Positions 9,740 to 34,475 are shown, counted from the first letter of the stretch. The stretch is 64,000 nt of DNA from Pseudomonadota bacterium (GCA_034189745.1 JAXHUI010000003.1:15048-79047), one strand, 5' to 3'. Notes: generated by a model from the sequence alone, not told the origin. Numbers and translations: made by a program.

Positions 9740-10282
9740 TCACAGGCGGAAAAAATGGCGCCGGTAGTAGCGCAGCTCTTCGATCGACTCGCGGATATCA
9801 TCCAGCGCCAGATGGGTGTTGTTCTTCTTGAAGCCATCCATGATGCCGGGCTTCCAGCGCCGCGCCAGCTCCTTGATGGTGCTCACATCGAGGTTGCGAT
9901 AATGAAAAAACGCCTCCAGTTCCGGCATATAGCGGCAGAGAAATCGGCGATCCTGGCCGATGCTGTTACCGCACATGGGGGAGGCTCCCGGTTCGCTGTG
10001 CTGGCGCAGAAACGCCAGCATCCGCTGCTGCGCCTCCGCTTCGGAGATGGTGCTGGCGCGGACCCGGTCGGTCAGCCCGGACTGGCCGTGCTGGCGGGTG
10101 CACCACGCATCCATGTGTGACAACACCGCATCCGGCTGATGTACGGCGAGCACCGGCCCCTCCGCCACCAGGTTCAGATCGCTATCGGTCACGATGGCCG
10201 CCATCTCGATGATGCGGTCGGTGTCAGGATTCAGGCCGGTCATCTCCAGATCGACCCAAACCAGATTGTCCTTCAGTGCCAT
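9740..10282 (-). CDS. orn: Oligoribonuclease
   Basis: [43 protein letters not shown]. Confidence 0.97.
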
Positions 10283-10378
10283 GCACCCTTTCTCCCCTGG
10301 CCAGACTGTCAATTTTTCCCGCTTTGGAATACCTTAGCACGTCAACCAACAAAGCTGTGAGCGAGTGATAACCGCCGG

Positions 10379-11404
10379 ATGGGAAAACGCAAGGTCAGTC
10401 GTCGTCAGGCGTGGCGCATCGACAGGATTCAGTCCGAACGCGCAGCCCGTGCCACGCGCCAGGATGCCCTGGTCGAGGCGCAACTGGAGGGGGGCGAGTT
10501 GGGCCCCGAACAGGAGGGGCTGATCGTCGCCCATTTCGGCCGCCAGGTCGAGCTGGAGCCCCTCGAAAGTGGCCGCGGCGGGGCGTGTGTGCGCTGCCAC
10601 CTGCGCACCCACCTGGGTCAACTGGTCACCGGCGATCGCGTCATCTGGCGGCGCACGCCGGATGGTGGTGTTGTGGTGGCCGCCCTCGACCGCCGCAGTG
10701 AGCTGCTGCGGCCCAATAACTACGGTGAGCTGAAACCGGTGGCCGCCAATATCGACCTCATCATCCTCGTGATCGCGGTCGAGCCCCACCCCCACGCCAA
10801 CCTGATCGACCGTTATCTGGTCGCCGCCGCGGCCAGCGCGATCGAGCCGGTACTGCTGCTGAACAAGGCCGACCTGCTCGACGCTGACAACCGCCGACGA
10901 CTCGACCCGCTGCTGGAGCTGTACCACTCCCTGGGCTATCGCACCCTGCAGGCATCCACCGCCAGTCAGCACGGTCTGGACCAGCTGCGGGCGCTCCTGG
11001 CCGGCCATACCAGTGCCTTTGTGGGCCAGTCCGGGGTGGGAAAATCCTCCCTGATCAACAGCCTGCTGCCGGCTGCCGCTCTGCGCGTGGGCGTCCTCTC
11101 CGAGCAGTCGCGCACGGGTCGCCACACCACGACGACGGCGCGCTTGTTCCACCTTCCGGGGGGCGGTGATCTGATCGACTCCCCCGGCATCCGCGAGTTT
11201 GGCCTCTGGCACATGAGCCAAGAGCAGGTGCTGAGCGGCTTTCGTGAGTTGGCGCAACTGCAGGGGCAGTGCCGCTTCCGCGACTGCCGCCATGAACAGG
11301 AGCCGGGCTGTGCATTTCGTGCGGCGGTGGTCGACGGCCGCGTCAGTGAGCAGCGCTTCAACAGCTACCGGCAAATTCTCGATTCGATGCAGAACAAACG
11401 CTAA
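10379..11404 (+). CDS. rsgA: 30S biogenesis GTPase RsgA
   Basis: NKAD, GQSGVGKSS, GRHTTT, DSPGIREF, CRFRDCRHEQEPGC zinc site. Confidence 0.96.
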   Translation: MGKRKVSRRQAWRIDRIQSERAARATRQDALVEAQLEGGELGPEQEGLIVAHFGRQVELEPLESGRGGACVRCHLRTHLGQLVTGDRVIWRRTPDGGVVVAALDRRSELLRPNNYGELKPVAANIDLIILVIAVEPHPHANLIDRYLVAAAASAIEPVLLLNKADLLDADNRRRLDPLLELYHSLGYRTLQASTASQHGLDQLRALLAGHTSAFVGQSGVGKSSLINSLLPAAALRVGVLSEQSRTGRHTTTTARLFHLPGGGDLIDSPGIREFGLWHMSQEQVLSGFRELAQLQGQCRFRDCRHEQEPGCAFRAAVVDGRVSEQRFNSYRQILDSMQNKR

Positions 11405-11427
11405 CCGAAGGAGGACGCGGCACAGCC

Positions 11428-13053: not shown

Positions 13054-13186
13054 CCCGCCATCGGGCAGGGGGTCGCGTTCAAAAGAGGGTACGCCACCGA
13101 AACGGCCCCCGCCGGTGTTGTGAACCGCAACGGTTTGGCGCCTGAGCGCCCGCCAAAGCTCCGGGCGGCCGTGGAGCATTTCAAAG

Positions 13187-13813
13187 TCAAAGCGCCCCCG
13201 GCGCCGCTGGCTTGAGCCCACGCCAGCGCTCGACCACCGGCAGGTGTACCCCGAACTGATCCAGAACGCGCCCCACGATCTGGGTCACAACCGCGTCCAG
13301 ATCCTGCAAGCCAAGGTAGAAGGCGGGCGCCGGAGGAAAGATGATCCCCCCGGCCTCGGTCACGGCCACCATGTTGCGCAACTGGATGAGATTCAGCGGC
13401 GCCTCCCGCGTCACCAGCACCAGCCGCCTGCGCTCCTTGAGCGTGACATCCGCGGCCCGCGTCACCAGATTGTCGCTGCTGCCATGGGCGATCCCCGAGA
13501 GGGTTTTCATGGAGCAGGGGATCACCACCATCCCCTCGGTGCGAAACGACCCACTGGCGATGGCCGCGCCGATATCCTTGTGCCCATACACGCAGGTGGC
13601 CAGTTGCTGGAACCGATCACGCCCCACCTCCAGCTCCTGTTGCGCCGTGACCACCGCCGCCGGGGAGAGCACCAGATGGGTCTCCCACTCCGGCACCCCC
13701 TGCATCAGCTGCAGCAAACGCAACCCCAGCAGCGCGCCGGAGGCCCCGGTGACCGCCACCACCAGCCGCCGGCGAGGGGGCTGCTCAGATCCGGCGGCGA
13801 TCTCACTGCTCAC
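13187..13813 (-). CDS. ubiX: Flavin prenyltransferase UbiX (makes prFMN for UbiD)
   Basis: VAVTGASG, IASGSF, PCSMKTL, RAADVTLKERR, REAPL, PPAPAFY; GTG start overlaps the upstream stop. Confidence 0.94.
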   Translation of the reverse strand: MSSEIAAGSEQPPRRRLVVAVTGASGALLGLRLLQLMQGVPEWETHLVLSPAAVVTAQQELEVGRDRFQQLATCVYGHKDIGAAIASGSFRTEGMVVIPCSMKTLSGIAHGSSDNLVTRAADVTLKERRRLVLVTREAPLNLIQLRNMVAVTEAGGIIFPPAPAFYLGLQDLDAVVTQIVGRVLDQFGVHLPVVERWRGLKPAAPGAL

Positions 13814-15159
13814 GCCAGCGCCTCTTCGAGTCGCGAGCGCAACGCGACAAAGCCCGCGTCACTGTACTGCTGCAGCGCCACCGGTTGCAGGGCGGGACTG
13901 GCGCGGACCACACCGATCCCCTGCTGCGCCCAGTGGGTGATGAGGCGCCGGCCAAGCTCCAGCGCGGAATCGACCGCTCCCGGCTCGAACAGGATGAACG
14001 CCTCGGCCAGCAGAGAGCGCCACGCGGTGCCCTGCTCGATCACAATCTGGCAGCCGCTTCCCTGCGCGATCTGGTGGGTGCCGCGCACGAACGCCCGTGC
14101 GCTGTCGCCTTCGATCGGCATGGCGAAACAGAGCCGCAACATCCGCCCCCTGGCGCCATCGAGAAAGGCTCGATACCGCGGCGCCGGCCGCCCCGACATC
14201 AGGGCGGTGCGCTCCGCCTCGGGCGCGAGCGGCTGCATGGTGATGCCGCCGAGCTGGCCGGCAAGCCCCTCGAGCATGGTCCACACCGCGTCGACATTTT
14301 TCTCCAGTCCATAAAGCGCGCCGTATATATTCCAGCCACCGGGGTCGCCCTCCCCGGTAAGCCGCCGCTCACTGCGCTCATCCACAGCCACGAGGGTATT
14401 GGGCACCACCATGTTGATCCGCAGGGAGCGCACCGCCTCCATCGCCGCCACGAATCGATCGTCGTCATCGACGCGCCAGACGAACGGTCGGTAAGCGGGC
14501 GGTTGCGGTGATACCCAAAAGCCCATTTTGGTGGTCACCGCATAGGCGCTCTGGGTGAAGATGCCATCGGCGTAGGGGCCAAAGCCGTATTTGAACAGCT
14601 GCCAGCTGTTCTCACCGGGCATCGCCCCCATGCCGGTGCGCACCAGGCTGCCGTCGGTCTGCATCACCTCCATTCCGCACTGCATCATCATGCGATCGCC
14701 ATAGGCGGTGTAGCCGAAGCTGCGCTCCCAGATGCTGCCGGTGATGGAGGCGTCGGCGTCGGCACCGGCATCGAGCCACAACGCCAAGCCGTTTTCCTTC
14801 AGGTGGGCCGCCAGTTGCGCGTAGCTGACGCCGGGCTCCACCAGCGCGTAGCCGGAGGCGGCGTCCACCTCGACGATCCGGTTCAGACGCGACAGCTCCA
14901 GCAATACCGGAGCGGCGCCGCCGGCCGGAGGCACCACGAGGGCGTTACCCGCCTGGTTCCAGGCGATCCAAAGTGAAACGCCGGACGCTTTGGCCGCCGG
15001 CAAAACCAACGCCAGCTCCTCCACGGAGGCCGGCCGCACCCGCTGCTCGGGATGGCGCCCCTCGACGCCGACGCCCTGGTGCAGGATGGAGCGATCCGTT
15101 ATCGCTTCCAGCGCCAGCCCCGCCGCTTCCAGCCGCTTGGCAAAGTTTTCTACTGCCAT
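13810..15159 (-). CDS. Degenerate VAO/PCMH-family flavoprotein paralogue (probable pseudoenzyme subunit)
   Basis: Keeps VEPGVSY, GYTAYGD, RTGMGAMPG..WQLFKYGFGPYADGIFTQS; lacks STGKN-YGG, the covalent-FAD residue, GEYR Tyr and the C-terminal DPxGILxPGK motif. Confidence 0.8.
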   Translation of the reverse strand: MAVENFAKRLEAAGLALEAITDRSILHQGVGVEGRHPEQRVRPASVEELALVLPAAKASGVSLWIAWNQAGNALVVPPAGGAAPVLLELSRLNRIVEVDAASGYALVEPGVSYAQLAAHLKENGLALWLDAGADADASITGSIWERSFGYTAYGDRMMMQCGMEVMQTDGSLVRTGMGAMPGENSWQLFKYGFGPYADGIFTQSAYAVTTKMGFWVSPQPPAYRPFVWRVDDDDRFVAAMEAVRSLRINMVVPNTLVAVDERSERRLTGEGDPGGWNIYGALYGLEKNVDAVWTMLEGLAGQLGGITMQPLAPEAERTALMSGRPAPRYRAFLDGARGRMLRLCFAMPIEGDSARAFVRGTHQIAQGSGCQIVIEQGTAWRSLLAEAFILFEPGAVDSALELGRRLITHWAQQGIGVVRASPALQPVALQQYSDAGFVALRSRLEEALA

Positions 15160-15401
15160 TATTTTCTCCCCCGAGATTGTTGTGGTTCGAACAGTTGACG
15201 CAACCGATCCAGATCAACGCCGGTTAGCTGCGCCCAGCGGGGCCGCTGGCTCGGATCGATGACCGCGGGGGGCTCACTGTCACGCCAGGTAAACGCACAA
15301 TGACCACAGTGCCAAACCTCCCACACCTTTTTACCCTGCTCATGACCCGAATGGACCCGGGTGGCGCTGCGCGTTTCACAGCGCGGACAGATCTCACTCA
15401 T
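15159..15401 (-). CDS. Non-oxidative hydroxyarylate decarboxylase subunit D (VdcD/BsdD-like)
   Basis: CPRC...VWEVWHCGHCAFTWRDSEP pattern; directly downstream of the UbiD gene. Confidence 0.85.
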   Translation of the reverse strand: MSEICPRCETRSATRVHSGHEQGKKVWEVWHCGHCAFTWRDSEPPAVIDPSQRPRWAQLTGVDLDRLRQLFEPQQSRGRK

Positions 15402-16884
15402 CTTCTCCTCCTTGCACCTGCATCGATTTCAGCCGCTGCAGCAGGGCGTCGATCTCTGCGCCCGCCGGTCGGCTCACCAGGTGTGGATCGGCACCGAGAT
15501 TATCCGGGGCCATGAAACTGGTTGCATCGATGATCAGCCGATGCCCTTTTCCGGGCACCTCCGCGGCCGGATCGATCGGCACCATCGCCATATTGGGCAA
15601 CACCATGATGTCATTCGCCCGGGTGCGGGTGGACAACGCCCAGATCACCTCCTCCAGGTTGAAGGGGTCGACAAACTCATCCACCAGAATGATGTTTTTC
15701 AGATACATGACGCCGTGGGGGGTACCCAACGCCCGCATCGCCACCGACTTGGCAAAACCCGCCACCCGGTTGCGCACCGAGATGATGGCGGTCAAACCAT
15801 GCTGGTACATGGCGTTGACCGCCTGTACCTCGGGAAAATCCTTTTTCAGGGCCGAGTAGATCGGCACCGAGGTGGGAAGCCCGATCAGGGTGTCGTGCTC
15901 CGTCCATCCTCGACCGATGTAGATATTTTCAAAGATCGGATCGTGGCGGTGGCTCACCGAGGTGACCTTGAACAGGGGTACCTTGCGCACCCCACTGTAA
16001 CTGCCGGGGAACTCGCCAAAGGGCCCTTCGGTCTCGCGCTCGTTGAGCACCATCTCGGTCTCGATCACCATCTCGCTGTCGGCCAAAATCTCTGTCCCAT
16101 TGAGCGCCTGGGTCAGGCGCAGACGCGAACCAAACACCTGTGAGGCATAGGCGAATTCCGATTCGTCGTAGCCCACCGGGGTGCCGCCAAACAGGGTCAT
16201 CGCCGGATGGTTGCCGATCATGATCGAGGCCCGCAACGGCTTGCCGTGGGCTTCGGCGGCCATCATCTGGCGACCGGCGTCATGGGAGGGGATGGAGAGA
16301 ATGGTCAGCGTGTCCGGCCCCATCACTTGGATGCGGTAGATGCCGACATTTTGTTTGTCGAAATTATCCGGCTCCAACGGGTCGCGGGTCACGACGCACG
16401 CCTTGGCGATGTAGAACCCCCCATCCATCTCGTTGATGCGATACAGGGGCAGGAGCTCGTACAGATTGATCTCCCGATCGATATGGTTCGCGCAGATGGG
16501 CGCCTGCTCACGCGGTATCCGCTCGAGCAGGGGTTTATCCGACCCCCATCGGCTCACCATCTCAAAAAACATCTCCCGCACGCTGGCGCTTTTGGGCAGA
16601 CCCAGCAACAGTGCCAGGTTGGCGAAGCTGCCCAGCACATTGGTGGCGATGCGGTGGCCGGGGTAACCCTGCACGTTGTCGAGCAACACAGCCGGCCCGC
16701 TGGCGACATCGTTCCCGGCCGCAACCGAAACGTTACGGATGTCGGGCTCGGGTCTCACCGGGTCATGCCACACCACCATCTGGTTACGCCGCGCCAGCAG
16801 GTCGAGAAAATCCCGCAGGCACCCGAGACCCGCGGCGGTAGCCTTTGCCGAGGCTGAGAGCCCCGTGTTCTTTTCACTGTCCAT
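15394..16884 (-). CDS. UbiD-family prFMN-dependent decarboxylase (VdcC/BsdC-like subunit C)
   Basis: DGGFY, KQNVGIYRIQ, EGPFGEF, FPEVQAVNAMYQHG, VDPFNLEEVIWAL, IIDAT. Confidence 0.9.
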   Translation of the reverse strand: MDSEKNTGLSASAKATAAGLGCLRDFLDLLARRNQMVVWHDPVRPEPDIRNVSVAAGNDVASGPAVLLDNVQGYPGHRIATNVLGSFANLALLLGLPKSASVREMFFEMVSRWGSDKPLLERIPREQAPICANHIDREINLYELLPLYRINEMDGGFYIAKACVVTRDPLEPDNFDKQNVGIYRIQVMGPDTLTILSIPSHDAGRQMMAAEAHGKPLRASIMIGNHPAMTLFGGTPVGYDESEFAYASQVFGSRLRLTQALNGTEILADSEMVIETEMVLNERETEGPFGEFPGSYSGVRKVPLFKVTSVSHRHDPIFENIYIGRGWTEHDTLIGLPTSVPIYSALKKDFPEVQAVNAMYQHGLTAIISVRNRVAGFAKSVAMRALGTPHGVMYLKNIILVDEFVDPFNLEEVIWALSTRTRANDIMVLPNMAMVPIDPAAEVPGKGHRLIIDATSFMAPDNLGADPHLVSRPAGAEIDALLQRLKSMQVQGGEDE

Positions 16885-18313
16885 GGGCACCCCCCTGGAT
16901 CGTGATCCACTTCCATTCGGTGCAGTGGTCGATGTCGGTCACCGTGCCCTCGCGGCCCATGCCGGAATCACCGACGCCACCAAAGGGCACGTGGGGCTCG
17001 TCGTACAGCGTGGGGGCGTTTACATGCACCATCCCCGCCCGGAGCCGACGCGAAGCCTGCATCGCCCAGTCGAGGTTGCGGGTATACACCGCCGCCGAAA
17101 GACCATAAGAGGTATCGTTGGCCAACTGCAGGGCCTGTTCGAGATCATCTACCGGATACACCGCCGTCACCGGGCCGAAGGTCTCCTCCCGGTAGCAGGT
17201 CATGCTCTCGCTCACCCCCGTGAGGATGGTGGGGTGGCAGCGGTTGCCGCTCCAATCCCCCCCGGTCAGAACCTGTGCGCCTTTGGCCCGGGCGTCGGCG
17301 ATATGCTCCCGTATCCGCTGCCGTTGACGTTCGGAGATAATCGGACCGATCACGGTGGCGGGGTCACTCAGCGGGCCCAGATTCAAAGACTCGGCCGCGG
17401 CGGTAAAGCGCTCGAGGAAAGCAGCATACAGGGGACGCGCTACCAGAATGCGACTGGCGGCCATGCAGGCCTGCCCCTGATAGAGAAACATGCTTTTCAC
17501 GGCATCCGCCACCGCCAGCTCCAGATCCGCATCCTCCAGGATCAACAGGGGGTTTTTCCCGCCGAGTTCCAACAACGAACGCTTGAAGTGGCGACCGCAC
17601 AGCTCGGAGAGGTGGCGCCCCACCCGGGTGGAGCCGGTGAAGTTCACGGCCCGAACCGCCGGCGCCTCGACCAGACGGTCACCGATCTCATGGCCGATTC
17701 CCGTCAGCAGATTGAAGGCACCGGCCGGAAAGCCGGCGTGGTGAAACAGCTCCGCCACCCTGACGGCCAGCACCGGCGCCTCCTCCGAGGCCAGCATGAC
17801 CACCGTATTGCCGGTCGCCAGCGGACCGGTACACTGCTTCATCGCCTTGATCAGAGGGACATTGAAGGGGGTGATACAGGCAACGACCCCCAACGGCTCA
17901 CGGATGCTGAGCCCCACCCGCCCCGGCGCGTCCGAGGGGAGGGTCTGGCCACAAACGCGCCGGGGGATACCCGCGGCGGCGCGCAGGTGGCCGATGGCGT
18001 ACTGGATCTCGAACCGAGCCTTCATCACCGGGGAACCGATCTCCTCGATCAGCACCTCTTCAAAGGCCTCGGCCCGCTCTTCCAGTAGCTGCGCGGCCCG
18101 CATCAGCCACGCCTCCCGTTCCCGGGCGAGGGTCTGGCGATAGGTTTGGAAGGCGGCATCGGCCGCCGCCACCGCCGCATCGACATCGGCAGGGCCGGCC
18201 TTGGCCACCACCGCAAACGCCTGATCATCTTCCGGTCGAAGGTCGACGAACGTGCTTTTATTGGCAGCGCTCACCCATTGACCGTCGATCCACAATTGGG
18301 TCTGTAGCATCAT
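16874..18313 (-). CDS. Aromatic aldehyde dehydrogenase (PchA/Vdh-like)
   Basis: ITPFNVP, FTGSTRVG, LELGGKNP, QGQACMAASR (catalytic Cys), EETFGP. Confidence 0.9.
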   Translation of the reverse strand: MMLQTQLWIDGQWVSAANKSTFVDLRPEDDQAFAVVAKAGPADVDAAVAAADAAFQTYRQTLAREREAWLMRAAQLLEERAEAFEEVLIEEIGSPVMKARFEIQYAIGHLRAAAGIPRRVCGQTLPSDAPGRVGLSIREPLGVVACITPFNVPLIKAMKQCTGPLATGNTVVMLASEEAPVLAVRVAELFHHAGFPAGAFNLLTGIGHEIGDRLVEAPAVRAVNFTGSTRVGRHLSELCGRHFKRSLLELGGKNPLLILEDADLELAVADAVKSMFLYQGQACMAASRILVARPLYAAFLERFTAAAESLNLGPLSDPATVIGPIISERQRQRIREHIADARAKGAQVLTGGDWSGNRCHPTILTGVSESMTCYREETFGPVTAVYPVDDLEQALQLANDTSYGLSAAVYTRNLDWAMQASRRLRAGMVHVNAPTLYDEPHVPFGGVGDSGMGREGTVTDIDHCTEWKWITIQGGAHGQ

Positions 18314-18663
18314 TTTTCTTTGTCCTCTATCTTGTTTTTTTGCGCGGCGGAAGTGGAGAGGTAGCGCGCCAGCGCATCCAACTCGCGGGCACTGATCTCA
18401 GAGGGTCTAAAGGGGGGCATCATATTGAGCCCGTGGCGGACAATCCGGCGCACATAATCCGGCTCCAGCGGCTCTCGATCCAGCAACGATGGCTGTTGCG
18501 GCCAGCGATCAGCGAGTCGCGCCGTACCCGGATACTCCATGCCGCGATCATGGCAGACGGTACAATATTGTTCGAACAGCGCCCGGCCATCGGGCTCGGC
18601 GAGCAGTGTGGATGAAAGAGTGCCCAAACCAAGCCCCACGGCCAGCGATAGCAATGTTTTCAT
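18310..18663 (-). CDS. Monoheme cytochrome c subunit (PchC-like)
   Basis: Sec-type signal, CTVCH, PGT, VRHGLNMMPPF (axial Met). Confidence 0.88.
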   Translation of the reverse strand: MKTLLSLAVGLGLGTLSSTLLAEPDGRALFEQYCTVCHDRGMEYPGTARLADRWPQQPSLLDREPLEPDYVRRIVRHGLNMMPPFRPSEISARELDALARYLSTSAAQKNKIEDKEK

Positions 18664-20234
18664 CAGACTCCCTCCTTCCGCAGCCGTTGGGGCCAGATCC
18701 CCATCTTGCCAGGCCCCAGTATGCCGCTTGGATCGAGGGCATCCTTCAACCGCTCCCGCTGTCGCTGTTGGGCGGCGTCATTCCAGTTATAGGTGCCCGC
18801 TATTTTGTCCATGAAATCGAGGTGGGTGCGATATTCACCATACCCTTCGGCCGCGGCGGCATCGATCAGCTCGCCAAACAGCTGGTTCGCCCGACGCTTT
18901 TCCGCCTCATCCTGCAGATCATAAACAAGGGCAAAAATGTGGTGCATGTCACGCCAACCAACCAGCATCTCGCCGATGTAATCGAACCCGGCCCGGTTGA
19001 CACGATCCCGGATCAGACTGTACTGGCGCATCGCATCCTCGCCGGTGACGGGGGAGATGGGAGAGAAGTCCATGTGTCCGCCGTTGGGGATCCAGTTCAT
19101 CTGGTTGTACTCGGTCATATTGGGGATGCCGCGCATGAGCTGCCTGCGGTACTCCCAGCCGATATCCCCCTTGCGATCGTCGTCGAAGTAGATTTTCGCC
19201 CCCGGGATCGACGTGAGCGAGTCACGGATGATCTCGAGGTTGTTTTCCATGATCGGCGCCGGGCCATAGACAGCCCCATAAAAATTCCACACCCCGATCT
19301 GCAGATCGGCACGCAGTTTCTTTCTCGCCGACTCCGGCAAGGGCCCCTTGCCGGTGTGGTAGTGACGGCGCTGCTTTTGCACGGCCGCCTCCCAGAGCAT
19401 CTCCACGGTGGTGGCGGCGTTGGGAATGATGTTGTTGAGCTTGAGCGGACGAACCCGCTCGGTGACCTCGTACAGATCCTCCTCGCGCTCGTAAGTGATC
19501 ATGAAGGGGGTGTAGCCCGGCGGCTCCGGCATCAGCCAGATGCCGATCCGGGTCACCACGCCAAAATTGGACTGGGTAAAAAGCCCGTCGGCCCATGGCC
19601 CCAACCCGTATTTGTAGAGGTGTGTGGTGCGGCTGCCGGGCAGGGCACCCATGGCGGTGTGGGCGATCGTGCCGTCAGCGAGCACCACCTCCATGCCGCA
19701 CTGCATCAGCAGGTGATCACCATACGGGGTGTAACCGGCTCCATGGTCCACCAGATTGCCCAACATGCCGCCCCAGCCCGGCGCGGCGGGGTCGATCCAC
19801 AGTTTGGAGCCGATGCTTTGCAGATGCCGATACATATCCATGTAGCTCACGCCGGGCTCCACCACGGCGTAGGCGTGTTTTTCATTTACCTCGAGGATCC
19901 GATTCATCCGTTTGAGGTCCAGCACCACCGCACCGGCCAGCCGGGGGGCAGGGCCGCCATAGGCGAAATTTTTACCCGTGGAGATCGGCCACAGCGGGAT
20001 GCCGTATCGTCCTGCGGCGCGAACAACGGCCTGCACCTGGGCCACGTTCGCCGGGGCGACGGCGGCGGAGGGCTGATGCAGCGCCTTGGGCAGGGTGGCA
20101 TATTCGTCATTGTAGGCGGGCAATTCCCATTCGAGATCGAGGTAGACGTAATCCCGACCCACCGCTTTTTGCGCCTCGGCCACAAACCCACGGAAAGCCT
20201 CACCGTTCACCTGCGGCGGAAGTATTCTCTCCAT
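18663..20234 (-). CDS. 4-alkylphenol/vanillyl alcohol dehydrogenase flavoprotein (VAO/PCMH family)
   Basis: STGKNFAYGG, VEPGVSY, GYTPYGDH, NWIPNGGHMDFSP, GEYRTH, DPSGILGPGKMGIWP. Confidence 0.9.
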   Translation of the reverse strand: MERILPPQVNGEAFRGFVAEAQKAVGRDYVYLDLEWELPAYNDEYATLPKALHQPSAAVAPANVAQVQAVVRAAGRYGIPLWPISTGKNFAYGGPAPRLAGAVVLDLKRMNRILEVNEKHAYAVVEPGVSYMDMYRHLQSIGSKLWIDPAAPGWGGMLGNLVDHGAGYTPYGDHLLMQCGMEVVLADGTIAHTAMGALPGSRTTHLYKYGLGPWADGLFTQSNFGVVTRIGIWLMPEPPGYTPFMITYEREEDLYEVTERVRPLKLNNIIPNAATTVEMLWEAAVQKQRRHYHTGKGPLPESARKKLRADLQIGVWNFYGAVYGPAPIMENNLEIIRDSLTSIPGAKIYFDDDRKGDIGWEYRRQLMRGIPNMTEYNQMNWIPNGGHMDFSPISPVTGEDAMRQYSLIRDRVNRAGFDYIGEMLVGWRDMHHIFALVYDLQDEAEKRRANQLFGELIDAAAAEGYGEYRTHLDFMDKIAGTYNWNDAAQQRQRERLKDALDPSGILGPGKMGIWPQRLRKEGV

Positions 20235-20815
20235 CAGACAGCCCTCCCCGGCAAGGCGAGCAGAGAGGCCCTGGCCGTGTCAGCCCAGCACTGCGCCTGG
20301 TGCAGCCGCGAAATCCGCTTTTGCTTGAAAAGCTCGCGGGGGTCCAGATCGAGAGCCAGCAGGTTGCCGGCAAAGTCGTACTCATCGCGCGCGGCGCCCA
20401 CGGCCCCGGCCAAAGAGCCCGCCAGGGAGGCGGGGGCGTGGATCTCATGCAGCCGCGCAGCTTTCGCGCCGTGCATGCCGCGCATGACGACTCGCCAGCG
20501 GCTGCCCAGTTGGGTGCGAAGAGCGAAAATGGCGGCGGGCGTCCCCAGAGCGACCAGGGCAGAGTAGTTGTCGACCGACAACGGCCCCTCCGCCTGGTGG
20601 GAAATCGCCGCGGCACGCTCCAGACTCAGGGGGTGGTGCTCGAGCGATACCCCCCTTGGGGAAAAGGGGAGGCGGGGATCGGGATGCTCCGAGAGCAACA
20701 ACACAGGGCGCAGATCGGTGCGCGGATCACCAACCAGCCCCGCCCAGGCCGGCAGAACCGTTGCCCCACACAGCAGGCCGGTCGTACCGGTCAAAAAGTT
20801 TCGTCGCGTCATCAT
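20234..20815 (-). CDS. Tat-signal protein of unknown function, first gene of the aromatic operon
   Basis: TRRNFLT twin-arginine motif, hydrophobic stretch, AWA cleavage site; GAGGA RBS; stop overlaps the flavoprotein start. Confidence 0.7.
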   Translation of the reverse strand: MMTRRNFLTGTTGLLCGATVLPAWAGLVGDPRTDLRPVLLLSEHPDPRLPFSPRGVSLEHHPLSLERAAAISHQAEGPLSVDNYSALVALGTPAAIFALRTQLGSRWRVVMRGMHGAKAARLHEIHAPASLAGSLAGAVGAARDEYDFAGNLLALDLDPRELFKQKRISRLHQAQCWADTARASLLALPGRAV

Positions 20816-20952
20816 TATTTTTATTCCTCTTGGACGTTAGCGCATCGAAATTAGCACCCCCTCTCAGAGTGCGCAACAAGCTGACCCTTTGAGAGTTGCC
20901 GCCCGCTCCGTTATGATCAGCCGTACCATATCTGAATGGTCGTACCCATAAT

Positions 20953-24072: not shown

Positions 24073-24331
24073 TCCCTCGAGGCTGGCATCACGCGCAACT
24101 CCGGTCTGAACGGCGGCAAACCTTTCACCCCAGTTCCTCAGCCTCGACGACACCGCCTGTTCCACCCTCGCCACACTTTTGGCCGCTGCGAACCGATTGG
24201 CCCGAATCAATATTGCAGGCGCAGAAGGTCACGCCGATTCTCCGATGGGCACAGTAATCTCCTCCTATCACTGCTAGGCTGGGGGTGATTGGTTTTGTCT
24301 GCTTCATTGCAGACTAATGAGGAGAGTCTAT

Positions 24332-25555
24332 ATGCAAGTCAATCCCGACAAGGGGTATATCGCCCTGCTGGGCTGGAGTCTCAACGCCGTTGAAGCGGCG
24401 GCGGCCTTCGATCGACGTTATGTCGTGGTCGCACCGGACTGGGCCGAGGAGTACTGTCAGCAGCATGACATTCCTTACCTGGCCTGGAACTTTGAACGAC
24501 TCAATGACCGATCCATGGAGATAGCCGAAACCCTCGAGGCGATGGGGGTTGATGTCGCCGTGCCGCTGTTTGAGGAAACCGTCGAATGGGCCGGCGCCAT
24601 CAATGCGGTATTGCTGGACAACCCCCGCCTGCTGGGGCAATCCATGTTGATGCGTGACAAGTCCCTGATGAAGCGGCGCGCCCAGCTGGGCGGTATTCGG
24701 GTTGGCATTTTCGAAGAAGCCCACGACAGGGAGGATGTGGTCCGCTTCCTGCGCCGGGTCAACCAGACACTGCTCAAACTGGACGGTGACCCCAACGACC
24801 CGATCCACTTCAAGGCGTTCGACAAGGCGGGCAGCCTGGGTCACCGAGTGATACGCACCCCCGATGAGGTCGATGCGATCCCGGATGATGAGTTTCCTGC
24901 ACTGATGGAATCGCACCTGGATGGGTGGGAGTTCGCCGTGGAGGCATGGGTTCACCATGGCAAGGTTGTGTTTCTCAACATCTCCGAATATGTCACCCTG
25001 GGCTACTCGGTCTTTGTTCCCGCCTCCCCCGAGCTTGAAGCCTACCGCCCACAGATCAAGGCGCAGATTGAAAAGCTGGTCAAAACCTTCGATATTGAAT
25101 TTGGTCTTATCCACCCGGAATATTTTGTCACCAGTGATGGTGAGATGTACTTTGGCGAAGTCGCTTACCGTCCTCCCGGTTTTAAGGTGTTCGAGCTGCT
25201 GGAAAAGGTTTACGGTTTTAATGCCTATCAGGCCACCATGCTGGTGTTCGATCCCAAAACCACGGCGGCAGAGGTGAGGGCCTTTTTCCCGCGTGAAATC
25301 GAAGATGCCAACGGATATGCCGGCTGTTTCGGGGTTTATCCGCGTCGGCGCGTGGTTAGCCGGCTTGAAATTCCGGCAGAGACCGAAGATCACCCCTACT
25401 TCGATTTCCACGAGCTGACCCCTCCGCTGCAGGAAACGGTCACCAAACGGACCGCCTTTGGTACCCACTGGGGGCTGATCTATTTTACCGGGCCCGACGC
25501 CCATGAGATGCGTCGACTACTCAAGCGACAGGAAGAGCTGGATTTTTATATATAA
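24332..25555 (+). CDS. ATP-grasp carboxylate-amine ligase, L-amino-acid-ligase-like
   Basis: RDKSLMK, KAFDKAGSLG, MESHLDGWEFAVE, IHPEYF, GEVAYRPPG; GAGGAG RBS before ATG 24332. Confidence 0.8.
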   Translation: MQVNPDKGYIALLGWSLNAVEAAAAFDRRYVVVAPDWAEEYCQQHDIPYLAWNFERLNDRSMEIAETLEAMGVDVAVPLFEETVEWAGAINAVLLDNPRLLGQSMLMRDKSLMKRRAQLGGIRVGIFEEAHDREDVVRFLRRVNQTLLKLDGDPNDPIHFKAFDKAGSLGHRVIRTPDEVDAIPDDEFPALMESHLDGWEFAVEAWVHHGKVVFLNISEYVTLGYSVFVPASPELEAYRPQIKAQIEKLVKTFDIEFGLIHPEYFVTSDGEMYFGEVAYRPPGFKVFELLEKVYGFNAYQATMLVFDPKTTAAEVRAFFPREIEDANGYAGCFGVYPRRRVVSRLEIPAETEDHPYFDFHELTPPLQETVTKRTAFGTHWGLIYFTGPDAHEMRRLLKRQEELDFYI

Positions 25556-25592
25556 TGTCGGGCAATCTTCGGGAACTTAGACAGGGGCCTGT

Positions 25593-27605
25593 GTGAACAG
25601 CGACCAGAACAGTGCGAACGACAAGCTGACCACGCTGCTGCGGCGCCTGGATCAGGCGATCGAGCAATATCAGAGTGCGGTAGAGTTTGCCAAACCGGGC
25701 AAGCTGCCTCGATTGGTCGACCTGTTGCGGCGGGTTCTGTTGGAAGAGGGGGGGTGTGCGGCTGTTGAGGCTCGTGCCCAGCGCCTGGAAGAGGCCGGTT
25801 TTTTTGCCGGCACAGACTGGGCAACGCCACAAATCCTGGTGCCCTCACTGACCCCACATGCGTTGGGCAGTGCCGATGCCACCCTTGTGGTGCTGGAGGC
25901 CGTCAGCGAGCTCAGACTGCTGACGGTCGCGCTCCATGGCTACCCGCATCCGCTGATTTCAGCCGAGCAGGCGCATAACTACCTGACTCAGGTGATGGCG
26001 ATCAACCTGGCCTTGCTGTTTATGCCACCCTCCGAGGCTGAGCGGGAGACACAGGGGCGACTGGCTCAGCTTCCGCGCAATCTGTTTCAGCATCTGGCGC
26101 AACGCATCGGCTATGAGCGGATCATTGACCGACTGATTGACGAGATCTGGCGGATCCTGCGCCAGCGCCCCATTCAGGTAGAACCGGTCAAGCAGATGGT
26201 GACCCAGATCGCCATCTGCCAGCAGGACCCGAATATCGACCTGGGCGGCAGTGGCCAGGGGGCCGACCGACTGGTCAGCAGCCTGTTTGGCGTGACCCAG
26301 GCCTGTCGGGAAGACCCCGGCGTAGAGGTGTATGCCGAGCGGCTGGCCAGCATGGACCGGCAGGCGCTGCAGTCCGAGGCCATCGGATTTGCCCGCGCCA
26401 TGCATGATACCGGGCTGGTCTCGCCCTACCATGCGGTGCTGTTACGCCACCTTCTGGTTCAGGATGAGCATTTGACCAGCGAAGCGTTGGGATTATCGTC
26501 CACGGGGCGTGATTGCTTCCTCTGCTACCGGGAGCTGGTACTGGCCTTGATCGGTCAGGGGATCTATCCGGAAACGGCTCAGGGGATCTACGGACTGGCG
26601 CTAATGCTGGAACGCGGCATTCTTTACCAGCCACCGGTGGCGCCTGCGCTCTGGCGCCAGCTGGGGCTGCGGCTCTCCAACTGGTCCCGGCAGCGGCTTG
26701 AGCTGGCGTTTGGCAGCGGGGTGACGGCCGAATCCCGCCTGGTTGAAGGGGTGCTGTGCATTCTGGGCTTGCCGCTGGGCGTCGGGCAGGGCAACAACCC
26801 GACCTGTCAGTCAGCACGCGCCCTGTCGATGTGGGCCTATAACGACCCGGATTACCTGCTGCAAATGCTGGTCTGGGCGGCTCGAGATGATGAGATCATC
26901 ATGCACTTTGAAGGGCAGCCGATCTCATCCCGAGAAAGCCTGGGCGGTGTCGCACGGGAACTTCCCATGGATCTTGATCCTGTTTCACTGCTGGTGGTCC
27001 CCCACCTGGATCTCATCTATGCCGAAATGGGACGGCGCTGCATCGGGCGTGAAGGAGACCCACACCGCTGGGTCAACCCGGAGTTTCACGGCTGGTGGTC
27101 CGGGCGCGGCTTCCGCATCAACGTGGACGTTGCGACCGGCAGCTTGATCGATCTGGATGACTTCCTGCGCACGTTCTACACCTGCTACCACCCCTACTAC
27201 AATGGCAACCAACCGTTGATCCACCCGCAGCCGGCCGGTATCGCCGTTACCGACAGCGCCGCGCGCTTTCTCGGCTGGCACGCGATTACGCTTCTGCGTG
27301 TTGCCCTCGATCCCGATGAGGTCATGCGCGTCTATTTCTACAACCCCAACAACGACAGTGGTCAGAATTGGGGCGATGGCGTGGTGGTCAGCACATCCGA
27401 CCGGGGCGAACGCTTTGGCGAGTCTTCGCTCCCCTTCGTGCAGTTCGCCTCACGGCTGTACATTTTTCACCATGACCCACTGGAGGGCGGTGACAAAACA
27501 CAGGTAACAGAGCAGGAGCTGACTGAAGTGAAAAACTACATCGCGCGCAGCTGGGGCGCCGACCGACAGCCCAGCGCCGCGCCCATGCAGACCACGAGCC
27601 GCTAG
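25593..27605 (+). CDS. 670-aa hypothetical protein with a putative papain/calpain-like catalytic domain
   Basis: Long ORF 37 nt after the ATP-grasp gene; QGNNPTC (Q399/C405), GWHAITL (H563), FYNPNNDSGQNWG (N584); no signal peptide. Confidence 0.65.
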   Translation: MNSDQNSANDKLTTLLRRLDQAIEQYQSAVEFAKPGKLPRLVDLLRRVLLEEGGCAAVEARAQRLEEAGFFAGTDWATPQILVPSLTPHALGSADATLVVLEAVSELRLLTVALHGYPHPLISAEQAHNYLTQVMAINLALLFMPPSEAERETQGRLAQLPRNLFQHLAQRIGYERIIDRLIDEIWRILRQRPIQVEPVKQMVTQIAICQQDPNIDLGGSGQGADRLVSSLFGVTQACREDPGVEVYAERLASMDRQALQSEAIGFARAMHDTGLVSPYHAVLLRHLLVQDEHLTSEALGLSSTGRDCFLCYRELVLALIGQGIYPETAQGIYGLALMLERGILYQPPVAPALWRQLGLRLSNWSRQRLELAFGSGVTAESRLVEGVLCILGLPLGVGQGNNPTCQSARALSMWAYNDPDYLLQMLVWAARDDEIIMHFEGQPISSRESLGGVARELPMDLDPVSLLVVPHLDLIYAEMGRRCIGREGDPHRWVNPEFHGWWSGRGFRINVDVATGSLIDLDDFLRTFYTCYHPYYNGNQPLIHPQPAGIAVTDSAARFLGWHAITLLRVALDPDEVMRVYFYNPNNDSGQNWGDGVVVSTSDRGERFGESSLPFVQFASRLYIFHHDPLEGGDKTQVTEQELTEVKNYIARSWGADRQPSAAPMQTTSR

Positions 27606-31054: not shown

Positions 31055-31212
31055 GCCGGGACTACAAACTCGCTGGTTGAGAAAAGTGAGCCATTCTACC
31101 TGATCCGCCGCTCCGTTTGAACGCTTGCAAAGCGCCCCCGATTCTTTACGGGGGAGGCTCGACTTGAGGGGGAATGTCGGCAAGAATGAGCCAATCAACT
31201 TCGGAGGCTCGC

Positions 31213-32667
31213 ATGATAAGGAAACGTATTCTGCCTGTAGCGGCTGCCCTGCTGCTGTCATTGCCCGCCCAAGCGTCCACGGAGGGGACGCCACACCTGA
31301 TCGATCTGACCACCAGCGTCTATGGTTACCTGGCGCTGCTGCTCTTTGCGCTGGCTTATGTTTTCGTCGCGCTGGAGGAGCGGCTGGCGCTGCGCAAATC
31401 AAAACCGGTCATCGTGGCGGCAGGGCTGATCTGGATACTGGTTGGCGTGGCCTATCGCCAGCAGGGGGACCAGGTCACCGCCGGCATCCAGCTACGGCAG
31501 TACATCCTGGATTACGCCGAGCTGTTTCTGTTCCTCCTCTCCGCCATGACCTATGTCAATATGCTCGAGGAGCGGCGGGTGTTCGAGGCGCTGCGCACCT
31601 GGCTGGTTTCCCGCGGGTTTTCCCTGCGCAGCGTGTACTGGATCACAGGCGCGCTTACCTTCTGCATCTCGCCCGTCGCCGACAACCTTTCCACCGCGCT
31701 GCTGATGGGCGCGGTGGTGATGGCGGTCGGCAAACACAACAACCGTTTCATCGCCGTCGGTTGCGTCAACGTGGTGGTGGCCGCCAACGCCGGCGGCGCG
31801 TTCAGCCCGTTTGGCGACATCACCACGTTGATGGTTTGGCAGCAGGGGCATGTTTCTTTCACCCAATTTTTCCAGCTGTTGTTGCCGGCGCTTATCAACT
31901 GGTTGATACCGGCGTTTTTGATGAACCTCGTGATCGAAGATGCGCGCCCCGACAACACCGGCAGACAGCGGCATCAACGCATGAAAAAGGGGGGCGTCAC
32001 CATCATGCTGATGTTCCTGGGGACCATCATCCTGTCGGTGCTGATTCACAGTGTGCTGAATCTGGCGCCGGCCCTGGGGATGATGACCGGGCTCGGGGTG
32101 TTGAAGCTATACGGTTACTATCTGAGTCTGCATGATCCAGTATTTCTCGATCCGGGGCATATCATCCACCACCAGTCCGAGAACAGCAGCAACCACAGCA
32201 TGCTGCGCGGTGACTATTCCGGTGTGGTGCGTCGTTTCGATATTTTCAAGGTCGTCGAGCGTGCCTCCTGGGATACGCTGATGTTCTTCTACGGTATCAT
32301 TCTGTGTGTGGGGGGGCTGGCCACACTGGGCTATCTGGCCCACCTCTCCACCCTGTTGTATGGCACCCTGGGCATACCGCTGGCCAACAGTGTGATCGGG
32401 GTACTATCGGCGCTGGTGGATAACATTCCGGTGATGTTTGCCGTGCTGTCGATGGACCCGGGGATGACCTACAGCCAGTGGCTGCTGGTCACCCTGACGG
32501 TGGGTACCGGCGGATCGCTGCTTTCGGTCGGCTCGGCGGCGGGGGTCGCACTGATGGGGCAGGCACAGGGAACATACACGTTCATGACGCACCTGAAATG
32601 GAGCTGGGCCATTCTGTTGGGCTATGTGGCCAGCATTTTCTGTCACCTTTGGCTTTCTGGACTCTGA
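31213..32667 (+). CDS. nhaD: NhaD-family Na+/H+ antiporter
   Basis: [49 protein letters not shown]; many TM helices. Confidence 0.88.
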
Positions 32668-32668
32668 C

Positions 32669-33346
32669 ATGACTGAACCTACCGCCAACCTGGAAAAAAA
32701 ACCCGTCTGGGATATTTATGTACGCCTGTTCCACTGGACTCTGGCCGTCAGCATTCTGTTCGCCTGGTGGAGCGGTGAACAGGGCGGCAACTGGATGACC
32801 TGGCACATGTACGCCGGCTATACCGTGCTGGGGCTGGTGCTGTTCCGCCTGCTGTGGGGGGTTGCCGGCAGCCATTACGCCCGCTTCAGCGAGTTCGTCT
32901 ACTCCCCGACCAGCACCCTCCGCTACACACGGCAGCTGCTTCAGCACCGCGAGCCCCACTATCTGGGCCACAATCCGCTCGGTGGCTGGATGGTGGTGGC
33001 GCTGTTGCTGCTGGCGGCGGCCCAGGCGGGTACCGGCCTGTTTGCCAATGACGAGATCTTCACCGAAGGGCCGCTGGCCCAGCTGATCAGCTACGACCTG
33101 AGTGTCGAGATCACCCGCTGGCACAAAGGGTTGTTCAATATCCTGCTACTGGCCATCGTCCTGCACATTCTCGGTGTCATCTACCATCAGGTGTTCAAAC
33201 GGGAGAGCCTGGTTCAGGCCATGCTACATGGCTACAAACTGGCGGCCAATGATACCCCCAGCCACCCATTCGCTCCCTTTCTGCGCGGGCTAGTGCTGGC
33301 CCTGGTGGCGGCCGTGATCGTCTGGGGCGTGGTCAATTTGGCCTGA
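32669..33346 (+). CDS. Diheme cytochrome b (cytochrome b/b6-like membrane protein)
   Basis: WDIYVRLFHW, HMYAG, GHNPLGG, WHKG, LHILG; four TM segments with His ligands. Confidence 0.85.
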   Translation: MTEPTANLEKKPVWDIYVRLFHWTLAVSILFAWWSGEQGGNWMTWHMYAGYTVLGLVLFRLLWGVAGSHYARFSEFVYSPTSTLRYTRQLLQHREPHYLGHNPLGGWMVVALLLLAAAQAGTGLFANDEIFTEGPLAQLISYDLSVEITRWHKGLFNILLLAIVLHILGVIYHQVFKRESLVQAMLHGYKLAANDTPSHPFAPFLRGLVLALVAAVIVWGVVNLA

Positions 33347-33351
33347 ACGCA

Positions 33352-33379
33352 AACAGGGCGCCGAACTGGGCGCCCTGTT
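33352..33379. terminator. Hairpin between the convergent cytochrome b and cytochrome c' genes
   Basis: 11-bp inverted repeat AACAGGGCGCC / GGCGCCCTGTT. Confidence 0.65.
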
Positions 33380-33402
33380 GCAACCGGATTGGCGTCGGGT
33401 GG

Positions 33403-33846
33403 TCACTCCTTGAAGTTGTCGTGGCAGCCCTTGCAGGTTTTGCCCACTTCACCGAAGGCGGGACGAATCTTCTCCATGTCACCGCTTTGCGCCACGGCCG
33501 CCAGGGCGTCGGTTTTTTCGACCAGAGTGTTCATCCCCTGCTCAAACTTATCCCAGTTCTGCTCGATCTCCGGCAGCGCCTCGGTGTCACCCTCGTAGGA
33601 GCCGGGGATGAAACCTTCCAGCGGGAGCCGGCTCAGCTGCGCCACGATCTCCGCCCGGCGGGCAAAATCCTCGGCGTCGTAATCCTGTTTGCCCTTGACC
33701 ATATCCGCCATGGTGGCGAAGTGCCACTTGACAGCACTGAACACGCCCCGCCGGTATTCGATCGCCTCTTCCACATCCGTGGCCAGCGCGGCCGTACTGC
33801 CCAGCACCAGAACCCCTGCCAATCCAACCATTGCGATTTTTTTCAT
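33403..33846 (-). CDS. Cytochrome c' / c-556 (class II cytochrome c)
   Basis: Signal peptide, IEYRR, C-terminal CKGCH. Confidence 0.9.
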   Translation of the reverse strand: MKKIAMVGLAGVLVLGSTAALATDVEEAIEYRRGVFSAVKWHFATMADMVKGKQDYDAEDFARRAEIVAQLSRLPLEGFIPGSYEGDTEALPEIEQNWDKFEQGMNTLVEKTDALAAVAQSGDMEKIRPAFGEVGKTCKGCHDNFKE

Positions 33847-33959
33847 GTCGTTTTTCCTTTTCTTTTCCATTGATGATCCCGGCCCGATTCTATACGAGCG
33901 CCCCCCGATCCAACAAGCGCACACTTGAAGGGGCTCACCGGTGAGCGGCGCGGTGCCGA

Positions 33960-34475
33960 TCAGTCCTCGAAGGCCCGCAGCAGCTGGGGTATCCAGGCGT
34001 TGATCCGCGCCTCGCTCAGGTGGTGTTCGCTATCTTCATCCAGCGCCAGGCCCACAAAGTGCCGCTTGTCCCCGGTCAGCGCTTTCGACGCCTCGAAGCG
34101 GTAACCCGCGATCGGCCAGGGCAGGACCAGCTCCCCCCCCGCCGCCTGCAACAGCTCATGGAGCGCGCCCATCGCATCCAGAAACCACTCACCATAGCCC
34201 AGCTGATCCCCCAACCCGAACAGGGCGATCTTTTTGCCGCTGAAATCGAGCGTCTGCAGAGCGGGCCACTGCTCCTCCCAGTCCTCCTGCAACTGGCCAA
34301 ACTCCCAGGTCGAGATCCCCATGATCAGCAGTTGATAGTGGGCCATCTCGCCGATCCCCTCGAGGGCGATATCATGTAGCTGGATCCGTTCGGGCAACGC
34401 TGCCGCAATCTGTTCTGCGACCCTTTCGGTGTTGCCCGTGGTACTGGCGTAAAACAGGCCGATGGGGGTACTCAT
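33960..34475 (-). CDS. fldB: Long-chain flavodoxin (FldB-like)
   Basis: STTGNTE, ISTWEFGQLQEDW, FGLGDQ.GY, FVGLALDE. Confidence 0.85.
   Translation of the reverse strand: MSTPIGLFYASTTGNTERVAEQIAAALPERIQLHDIALEGIGEMAHYQLLIMGISTWEFGQLQEDWEEQWPALQTLDFSGKKIALFGLGDQLGYGEWFLDAMGALHELLQAAGGELVLPWPIAGYRFEASKALTGDKRHFVGLALDEDSEHHLSEARINAWIPQLLRAFED

Follow-up and report, generated by a model that had tools for sequence, protein, structure and literature searches.

The closest described relative of the flavoprotein considered here is VAD, the His-FAD (flavin adenine dinucleotide) vanillyl-alcohol dehydrogenase of Marinicaulis flavus, whose structures are deposited as PDB 8S7N-8S7W (ACS Catal 2025, PMC7617285). 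This enzyme prefers vanillyl alcohol and eugenol, accepts 4-hydroxybenzyl alcohol and is inactive on p-cresol; it neither uses O2 nor reduces bovine cytochrome c (PMC7617285). The same 2025 paper termed the function of the VAD clade “generally unknown” and reported no cytochrome partner, export route or operon context for VAD. It also described Tyr384, the residue through which PCMH links its FAD, as occupying a position not homologous to that of the flavin-linking histidine (His422 in VAO). A homologue of VAD is encoded in a 64,000-nucleotide stretch of DNA from a Pseudomonadota bacterium (GCA_034189745.1 JAXHUI010000003.1:15048-79047), referred to here as the window. There it is the second of eight open reading frames that run along the minus strand from 20815 to 13187. 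Judged from its sequence, this operon is on balance best regarded as a catabolic module that would remove the para one-carbon substituent of 4-hydroxybenzyl alcohols and/or 4-methylphenols.

In order, the genes encode a Tat (twin-arginine translocation) signal protein, the VAO/PCMH-type flavoprotein (Flv1), a class I c-type cytochrome (CytC), an aldehyde dehydrogenase (ALDH), VdcC, VdcD, a second flavoprotein (Flv2) and the flavin prenyltransferase UbiX/VdcB. Successive genes overlap by 1, 1, 4, 11, 8, 1 and 4 nt, the value of 11 applying to the ATG start of vdcC at 16884, and a purine-rich Shine–Dalgarno-like stretch lies 5′ of each of the eight starts. Such packing points to tight translational coupling along the whole operon. 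An earlier note on this DNA had listed eight minus-strand genes overlapping by 1-11 nt. Its coordinates and overlaps are exact, and the content that it gave (Tat protein, flavoprotein, cytochrome c, ALDH, UbiD, VdcD-like protein, flavoprotein, UbiX) is what family searches return.

A chance arrangement of the eight genes is excluded, because the identical order is found again in genomic contexts that are unrelated, with 49-88% identity between the proteins; exact-protein look-ups located it in three other settings. A scan of species-representative genomes (one genome per species), scored by tblastn, returned 80 loci. A Flv2-type gene is present in 58 of these, with VdcD directly upstream of it in 50. 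The trio VdcC-VdcD-Flv2 occurs in 47 loci and the full series Flv1-CytC...VdcC-VdcD-Flv2 in 42, while six have too little upstream DNA to judge. UbiX lies within 39 loci and an ALDH on the same strand in 26, the positions of both shifting from locus to locus, and Flv2 directly follows CytC in five. Such a search for co-occurrence had been suggested in the earlier note, and it finds the flavocytochrome, the aromatic ALDH and VdcBCD linked in many genomes.

The flavocytochrome and its proposed export

Flv1 (523 aa; 18663..20234, minus strand) contains FAD_binding_4 and FAD-oxidase_C domains. The solved structures closest to it are those of VAD (E 2e-197), followed by eugenol and vanillyl-alcohol oxidases and PCMH (1dii, E 1e-130), and it shares 63-65% identity with the M. 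flavus enzyme over the full length. Residue mapping gives the signature Y92, A151-P152, H387 and Y468-R469. The flavin-linking H387, the proline at flavin N5 (Pro152) and the phenolate cluster Y92/Y468/R469 that mark the VAD clade are all present. His387 stands at the linking position of VAD, VAO and EUGO, the PCMH tyrosine position being taken from the paper only. Asp150 of VAD is replaced by Ala151, and alanine (once serine) is found there in all VdcCD-linked orthologues. The N5 pair A151-P152 is that of PCMH (A154/P155), and a c-type cytochrome is co-encoded, as with PCMH.

In the fetched loci, all VdcCD-linked homologues of Flv1 read Y-A-P-H-Y-R, apart from one Y-S-P-H-Y-R, and nine VAD-like Y-D-P-H-Y-R homologues all reside in loci without VdcCD. 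For some homologues of the A-P type, VdcCD is likewise not in the fetched DNA. Because alanine occupies the Asp150 position while His, Tyr, Arg and Pro are kept, and because of this pattern of linkage to VdcCD, Flv1 is, on its residues, a distinct subtype of the VAD clade and not PchF. The PchCF-type flavoprotein proposed in the earlier note is thereby replaced by a member of the His-FAD group. Flv1 most likely acts as a 4-phenol-oxidizing dehydrogenase.

The cytochrome gene (117 aa; 18310..18663, minus strand) overlaps the Flv1 stop codon by 1 nt, and a cytochrome c is located 3′ of Flv1 in nearly every related locus that covers the position. The protein matches Pfam Cytochrome_CBB3/Cytochrom_C (E 2e-16 for Cytochrome_CBB3) and carries a CTVCH motif and a hydrophobic Sec-type leader. 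It is presumed to be the electron acceptor of Flv1.

The first gene of the operon (20234..20815, minus strand) encodes a 193-aa protein with the features of a Tat substrate. Its N-terminus, MMTRRNFLTGTTGLLCGATVLPAWA, has an S/T-R-R-x-F-L motif (TRRNFL), a hydrophobic stretch and an AxA site. The twin-arginine (RR) motif is kept in the orthologues, and one homologue matches Pfam TAT_signal. The window protein itself has no match in Pfam, NCBIfam or, by sequence, the PDB. A Foldseek search of the PDB with its AlphaFold2 model (pLDDT 72.5, pTM 0.71) likewise gave no match, the best TM-score being 0.31; as modelled, the mature part is an alpha/beta domain without a known fold. The protein has only 13-16 sequence relatives. 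Most related loci carry a 180-215-aa RR-signal protein 5′ of Flv1, and the window protein belongs to one family with the RR proteins that precede Flv1 in distant loci (hhalign 98%, E 2e-13). Two histidines, H115 (nearly invariant) and H123 (invariant) in window numbering, are conserved in both the near and the far groups and could be a ligand pair.

There is no signal peptide in the Flv1 of the window. In one subgroup of loci the Tat gene is absent, and Flv1 is there approximately 40 residues longer, with an RR signal of its own at the N-terminus. Since in this subgroup the signal is fused to Flv1 itself, we infer that Flv1 is a Tat passenger. The 193-aa protein probably serves Flv1 as a carrier for hitch-hiking export or as an additional subunit, and its mature domain is best read as dispensable in some lineages.

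The loci in which Flv1 bears its own Tat signal (L012, L029, L030, L039, L047 and L063) have a further feature: a protein of about 247-253 aa with SnoaL_4 and zf-CDGSH domains is encoded roughly 2 kb upstream. In L012 that gene is itself immediately preceded by one for a Rieske oxygenase alpha subunit. No ALDH is found within 10 kb in this subgroup. Together these features suggest a variant of the pathway that opens with an oxygenase. The VAD-like (Asp-Pro) genes of L079, L082, L083, L085, L087, L089, L090, L092 and L094 are not preceded by a Tat protein gene and encode no N-terminal signal. A cytochrome c match above threshold occurs in all of these loci but L089. Duplication of Flv1 is seen in Immundisolibacter-like loci. 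Two intact copies stand in tandem in L080 (1900-5071), and L077 has a second Flv1-CytC pair (9851-11422) in which the phenolate Tyr-Arg has become Leu-Lys. This second pair adjoins an AlkB-like desaturase and two alpha subunits of Rieske oxygenases. Flv2 is absent from these loci.

Decarboxylase genes and the proposed route

The ALDH (479 aa; 16874..18313, minus strand; Pfam Aldedh, E 4e-156) has as its nearest solved structures the salicylaldehyde, vanillin, benzaldehyde and 4-hydroxybenzaldehyde dehydrogenases. By this likeness it is an NAD(P)+-dependent enzyme of the aromatic-aldehyde type.

VdcC (15394..16884, minus strand) comprises 496 aa from the ATG at 16884, with an alternative GTG start at 16890. 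It passes the NCBIfam VdcC model with 670.4 bits (cut-off 650) and aligns over its full length with Bacillus subtilis VdcC (7ae4, E 3e-128), including the stretch GPFGEFPGSYSG. An identity as an AroY-type protocatechuate decarboxylase was considered and rejected, the match to those enzymes reaching E 5e-34 against 3e-128 for VdcC. VdcD (80 aa; 15159..15401, minus strand) scores 75.4 bits with its NCBIfam model (cut-off 30) and contains four cysteines as CxxC...CxxC. The product of the last gene (208 aa; 13187..13813, minus strand) scores 259.8 bits with the NCBIfam UbiX family model (cut-off 188) and, at 255.9 bits, stays below the cut-off of 290 of the VdcB-specific model. By family membership, VdcC is a decarboxylase of hydroxyarylic acids in the UbiD family, dependent on prenylated flavin mononucleotide (prFMN), with VdcD as its small four-Cys subunit; UbiX is likewise assigned the synthesis of prFMNH2.

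The proposed route begins in the cytoplasm, where Flv1 would fold and its FAD become linked to His387. The Tat system would export it on the signal of the co-translated 193-aa protein. In the periplasm, Flv1 would take a hydride from the benzylic carbon to give a quinone methide, to which water would then be added. Flv1 would hand the electrons to the cytochrome c, itself exported by the Sec system, and from there they would reach the respiratory chain. The periplasmic product, 4-hydroxybenzaldehyde or a vanillin-type aldehyde, would enter the cell and be converted by the ALDH to 4-hydroxybenzoate or a vanillate-type acid. VdcCD, with prFMN from UbiX, would decarboxylate this acid to phenol, cresol or guaiacol and CO2. 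The phenolic product would be consumed by hydroxylases and ring-cleavage enzymes encoded elsewhere, or directly downstream in some relatives. Flv2 would serve as a non-catalytic partner of the flavocytochrome, like alpha-prime of the Geobacter PCMH.

Relatives of the module are carried by Panacagrimonas, Rugosibacter, Cycloclasticus and Porticoccaceae, often with genes of aromatic catabolism as neighbours, and the hosts are uncultured tar, oil-sand and marine hydrocarbon degraders. The copy in a TARA marine Panacagrimonas metagenome-assembled genome adjoins an XylR-type activator, a GST, an SDR and a NahE-like aldolase, and is also beside an MFS transporter, TodX and an XylMA-like pair. In the Rugosibacter-like copy, ubiX is followed by a 157-aa gene, an HpaB-type monooxygenase, a hydrolase (meta-cleavage), Rieske components, DsbA/NahD and BphC. 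Homologues of Flv2 at 35-40% identity in Cycloclasticus, Porticoccaceae and Gammaproteobacteria come after VdcC-VdcD and next to Flv1-CytC, and Immundisolibacter-like loci hold the module with VdcCD and without Flv2. Overall, the neighbours include XylR/DmpR-type regulators, TodX/FadL channels, HpaB-type monooxygenases, Rieske oxygenases and BphC. Such neighbours are consistent with hydroxylation and subsequent cleavage of a phenolic product.

The earlier note had also proposed that the side chain is oxidized and then lost as CO2. The gene linkage partly supports this reading, while the PchF identity, catechol as a product and independence from O2 have to be revised. Phenol and guaiacol survive as proposed products; catechol is unlikely, the enzyme being of the VdcC type and not a protocatechuate decarboxylase. 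The statement that no step needs O2 is formally right for the substrate chemistry, but the cytochrome c must pass its electrons to a terminal acceptor and prFMN has to be matured by oxidation. The hosts and neighbouring genes of the relatives are aerobic and oxygenase-rich in character.

Several observations weigh against the removal of a para substituent as set out above. No aromatics-related regulator, transporter, hydroxylase or ring-cleavage gene occurs in the 64-kb window. About half of the loci containing Flv2 have no ALDH within 10 kb, so that the link from aldehyde to acid is not universal. Reactions of the UbiD family, including VdcCD, are reversible. The Flv2 gene lies directly after vdcD in 50 of 58 loci, a position that fits a role in decarboxylation equally well. 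Lastly, since VAD does not oxidize p-cresol, an alcohol, eugenol or another compound may be what enters the route. The analogy with VAD argues for alcohols, and the PCMH-like Ala-Pro pair makes methylphenols possible.

VdcBCD/BsdBCD are classically decarboxylases of vanillate and 4-hydroxybenzoate with a detoxifying role, and the D subunit carries the Pfam name EcdD_BsdD_detox. Both points would suit a detoxification or flavour-type route restricted to lignin C6-C1 compounds, in which vanillyl alcohol or vanillin is converted to vanillate and then guaiacol, with no alkylphenol funnel. The substrate range of VAD, with vanillyl alcohol and eugenol preferred and p-cresol inactive, points the same way (PMC7617285). 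The hosts, however, are the hydrocarbon degraders named above, the neighbouring genes are those of hydrocarbon and phenol catabolism and not of lignin, and the N5 residue is precisely where the module-linked Flv1 departs from VAD, with Ala-Pro as in PCMH. Restriction to lignin-derived compounds is unlikely compared with the broader removal of para substituents.

The second flavoprotein

Only the FAD_binding_4 domain is recognized in Flv2 (449 aa; 13810..15159, minus strand). It is 30% identical to Flv1, with the core of the FAD domain well conserved and a 17-residue segment and the C-terminal tail missing. Residues Y92, P152, H387 and Y468 of Flv1 are L, D, M and V in Flv2, and A151 and R469 are unchanged, giving an Ala-Asp pair at N5. 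Among 58 orthologues, every position of the catalytic signature (phenolate cluster, flavin-linking residue and N5 pair) varies, and the FAD pyrophosphate loop STGKN is degenerate or deleted across the family. In the same loci, identities to the window proteins are 73/66/52/39/35% for Flv2 and 88/79/68/63/62% for Flv1, a divergence approximately twice as fast; the nearest Flv2 match among the species-representative genomes is 73% identical. Because the catalytic positions vary, the STGKN loop has decayed and the divergence is fast, Flv2 is probably a non-catalytic, decayed paralogue of Flv1. A role as a second, independent oxidase was considered and rejected from the residues at these positions. 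The “second flavoprotein” of the earlier note is correctly named in that it is a FAD_binding_4 paralogue of Flv1, but it is not countable as a second oxidase, its signature being lost.

Johannes et al. 2008 reportedly described the PCMH of Geobacter metallireducens as alpha/alpha-prime/beta2. The second flavoprotein isoform of this enzyme has been named alpha-prime in a preprint. By analogy, Flv2 most likely accompanies the flavocytochrome as a non-catalytic partner of the alpha-prime kind. The five loci with Flv2 directly 3′ of CytC are evidence for such a partnership. In two of them (L065 and L081) no VdcCD is found in the fetched DNA, which for L081 amounts to 4.2 kb only, and in L084 and L093 VdcCD is on the other strand.

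Flv2 might instead serve VdcCD, as an accessory of the VAO fold that holds prFMN, matures it by oxidation or stabilizes the VdcCD complex, comparable in role but not in fold to the PhdC maturase or the LpdD chaperone. The prevailing position after vdcD suits this role, as does the trio VdcC-VdcD-Flv2, which stays intact while ALDH and UbiX move. In the window Flv2 sits between vdcD and ubiX with overlaps of 1 and 4 nt, and other UbiD operons carry dedicated prFMN helpers. Nonetheless, Flv2-type genes also come directly after CytC, twice without VdcCD in the fetched DNA, and the Immundisolibacter-like modules have VdcCD and lack Flv2. The variable or deleted pyrophosphate loop and active-site positions are also unlike those of a conserved redox catalyst. 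A service of this kind to VdcCD is therefore rather improbable. It is more doubtful still that Flv2 is a re-purposed VAO/PCMH-fold partner of VdcCD that, for example, receives prFMNH2 from UbiX and oxidizes or delivers it. If true, prFMN maturases or chaperones would gain a structurally new class, and the position of the gene directly after vdcD in so many genomes would be explained.

There is very little to recommend the reverse reaction, in which VdcCD would carboxylate phenol so that it and the 4-methylphenols (through Flv1 and ALDH) converge on 4-hydroxybenzoate for degradation by genes elsewhere: the reversibility of UbiD-family reactions and the lack of phenol-consuming genes in the window would allow it, but direct phenol carboxylation is unfavourable at cellular CO2 levels and anaerobes spend ATP on it via phenylphosphate, phenylphosphate carboxylase models score far below their cut-offs, and Rugosibacter-like loci have the HpaB-type hydroxylase and meta-cleavage genes directly after ubiX.

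Genomic setting and comparison with known systems

The intergenic region upstream of the operon (20816..20952) is the presumed promoter region and contains an AGAGGA ribosome-binding site on the minus strand. A single sigma-54-like element of the form GG-N10-GC, GGGTCAGCTTGTTGCG, lies at 20887 to 20872, ahead of the first gene. In the relatives the corresponding DNA lacks it or does not align, and it is not claimed as a promoter. Scans for promoters and terminators gave no more than shuffled sequence would.

The operon appears as a clean insertion, with borders at 13054-13186 and 20816-20952, within a Pseudomonas-like series of housekeeping genes, where orn, rsgA and HDOD lie to one side of it and rhodanese and psd to the other. 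One flank consists of miaA, mutL, amiB, nnr, queG, orn, rsgA and the HDOD protein gene, and the other of rhodanese, psd, lysS, lptFG, pepA, msrAB, mla, valS and an RND pump. The earlier remark that no PobA, VanAB or coenzyme A (CoA) ligase gene accompanies the operon holds within the window, where the other genes are housekeeping. No mobile-element genes and no flanking direct or inverted repeats were found at the operon borders, the only long repeat being the Flv1/Flv2 paralogy, and plasmid searches (megablast with the operon, tblastn with the Tat protein) gave no matches. The Burkholderiaceae copy (L009 and L010) is flanked by insertion sequence elements with IS110 and rve transposases. The eight-gene module seems to move horizontally. 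The same contig region is contained in several oil-related metagenomes.

Two other parts of the window may be mentioned. At 24314-27605, the stretch of lowest G+C (0.58), there are two large open reading frames of 396 aa (minus strand) and 670 aa (plus strand) without a Pfam or PADLOC match. A small redox cluster at 31174-34475 encodes a CitMHS-family transporter, cytochrome b561, cytochrome c-prime and a flavodoxin.

According to the earlier note, this combination of genes is not known to have been described as one operon, and in the literature searched, with subscription journals outside its scope, no description of it was found. Each part is a member of a known family. The novelty lies in the conservation of their linkage, in Flv1 as an Ala-Pro/His subtype, in the family of Tat carriers and in the decayed paralogue. 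The VAD clade would acquire a place in physiology, a cytochrome of its own and a path of export. The predicted route would turn the para carbon of alkylphenols or lignin-type phenols into CO2 and feed phenol/catechol pathways instead of protocatechuate pathways. The module is widespread in the uncultured degraders described above and bears on what becomes of cresols and xylenols at contaminated sites. It could also provide a cassette for making phenol or guaiacol from benzylic precursors. Two uncharacterized conserved proteins, the Tat carrier without a known fold and the decayed flavoprotein paralogue, are given testable roles.

Compared with known systems, Flv1 shares with VAD the histidine for 8-alpha-histidyl-FAD (His387), the Tyr/Tyr/Arg cluster and the O2-suppressing proline at flavin N5. 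It differs in having Ala151, the PCMH state, where VAD has Asp150. This difference recurs among the loci, VAD-like Asp-Pro forms being found without VdcCD and module-linked flavoproteins being Ala-Pro, once Ser-Pro. The extra non-decarboxylase genes in other UbiD/UbiX operons, such as those for the prFMN maturase PhdC and the prFMNH2 chaperone LpdD, offer a parallel to Flv2, which as a VAO/PCMH-fold paralogue has no sequence relation to either. PchCF and PchA of Pseudomonas putida resemble the operon in the side-by-side flavoprotein and c-type cytochrome, the Ala-Pro pair at N5 and the adjacent aromatic ALDH. PCMH, however, links its FAD through Tyr384 and is less similar to Flv1 than VAD is (E 1e-130 versus 2e-197). 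Known PCMH pathways lead the acid to protocatechuate or a CoA thioester, whereas the operon described here supplies a presumed decarboxylase. The C, D and B components of VdcBCD/BsdBCD of Streptomyces and B. subtilis (7AE4) are all present, in the order C-D-Flv2-B instead of B-C-D. In contrast to those systems, they lie inside an operon that would make their presumed substrate, in hydrocarbon-degrading Proteobacteria.

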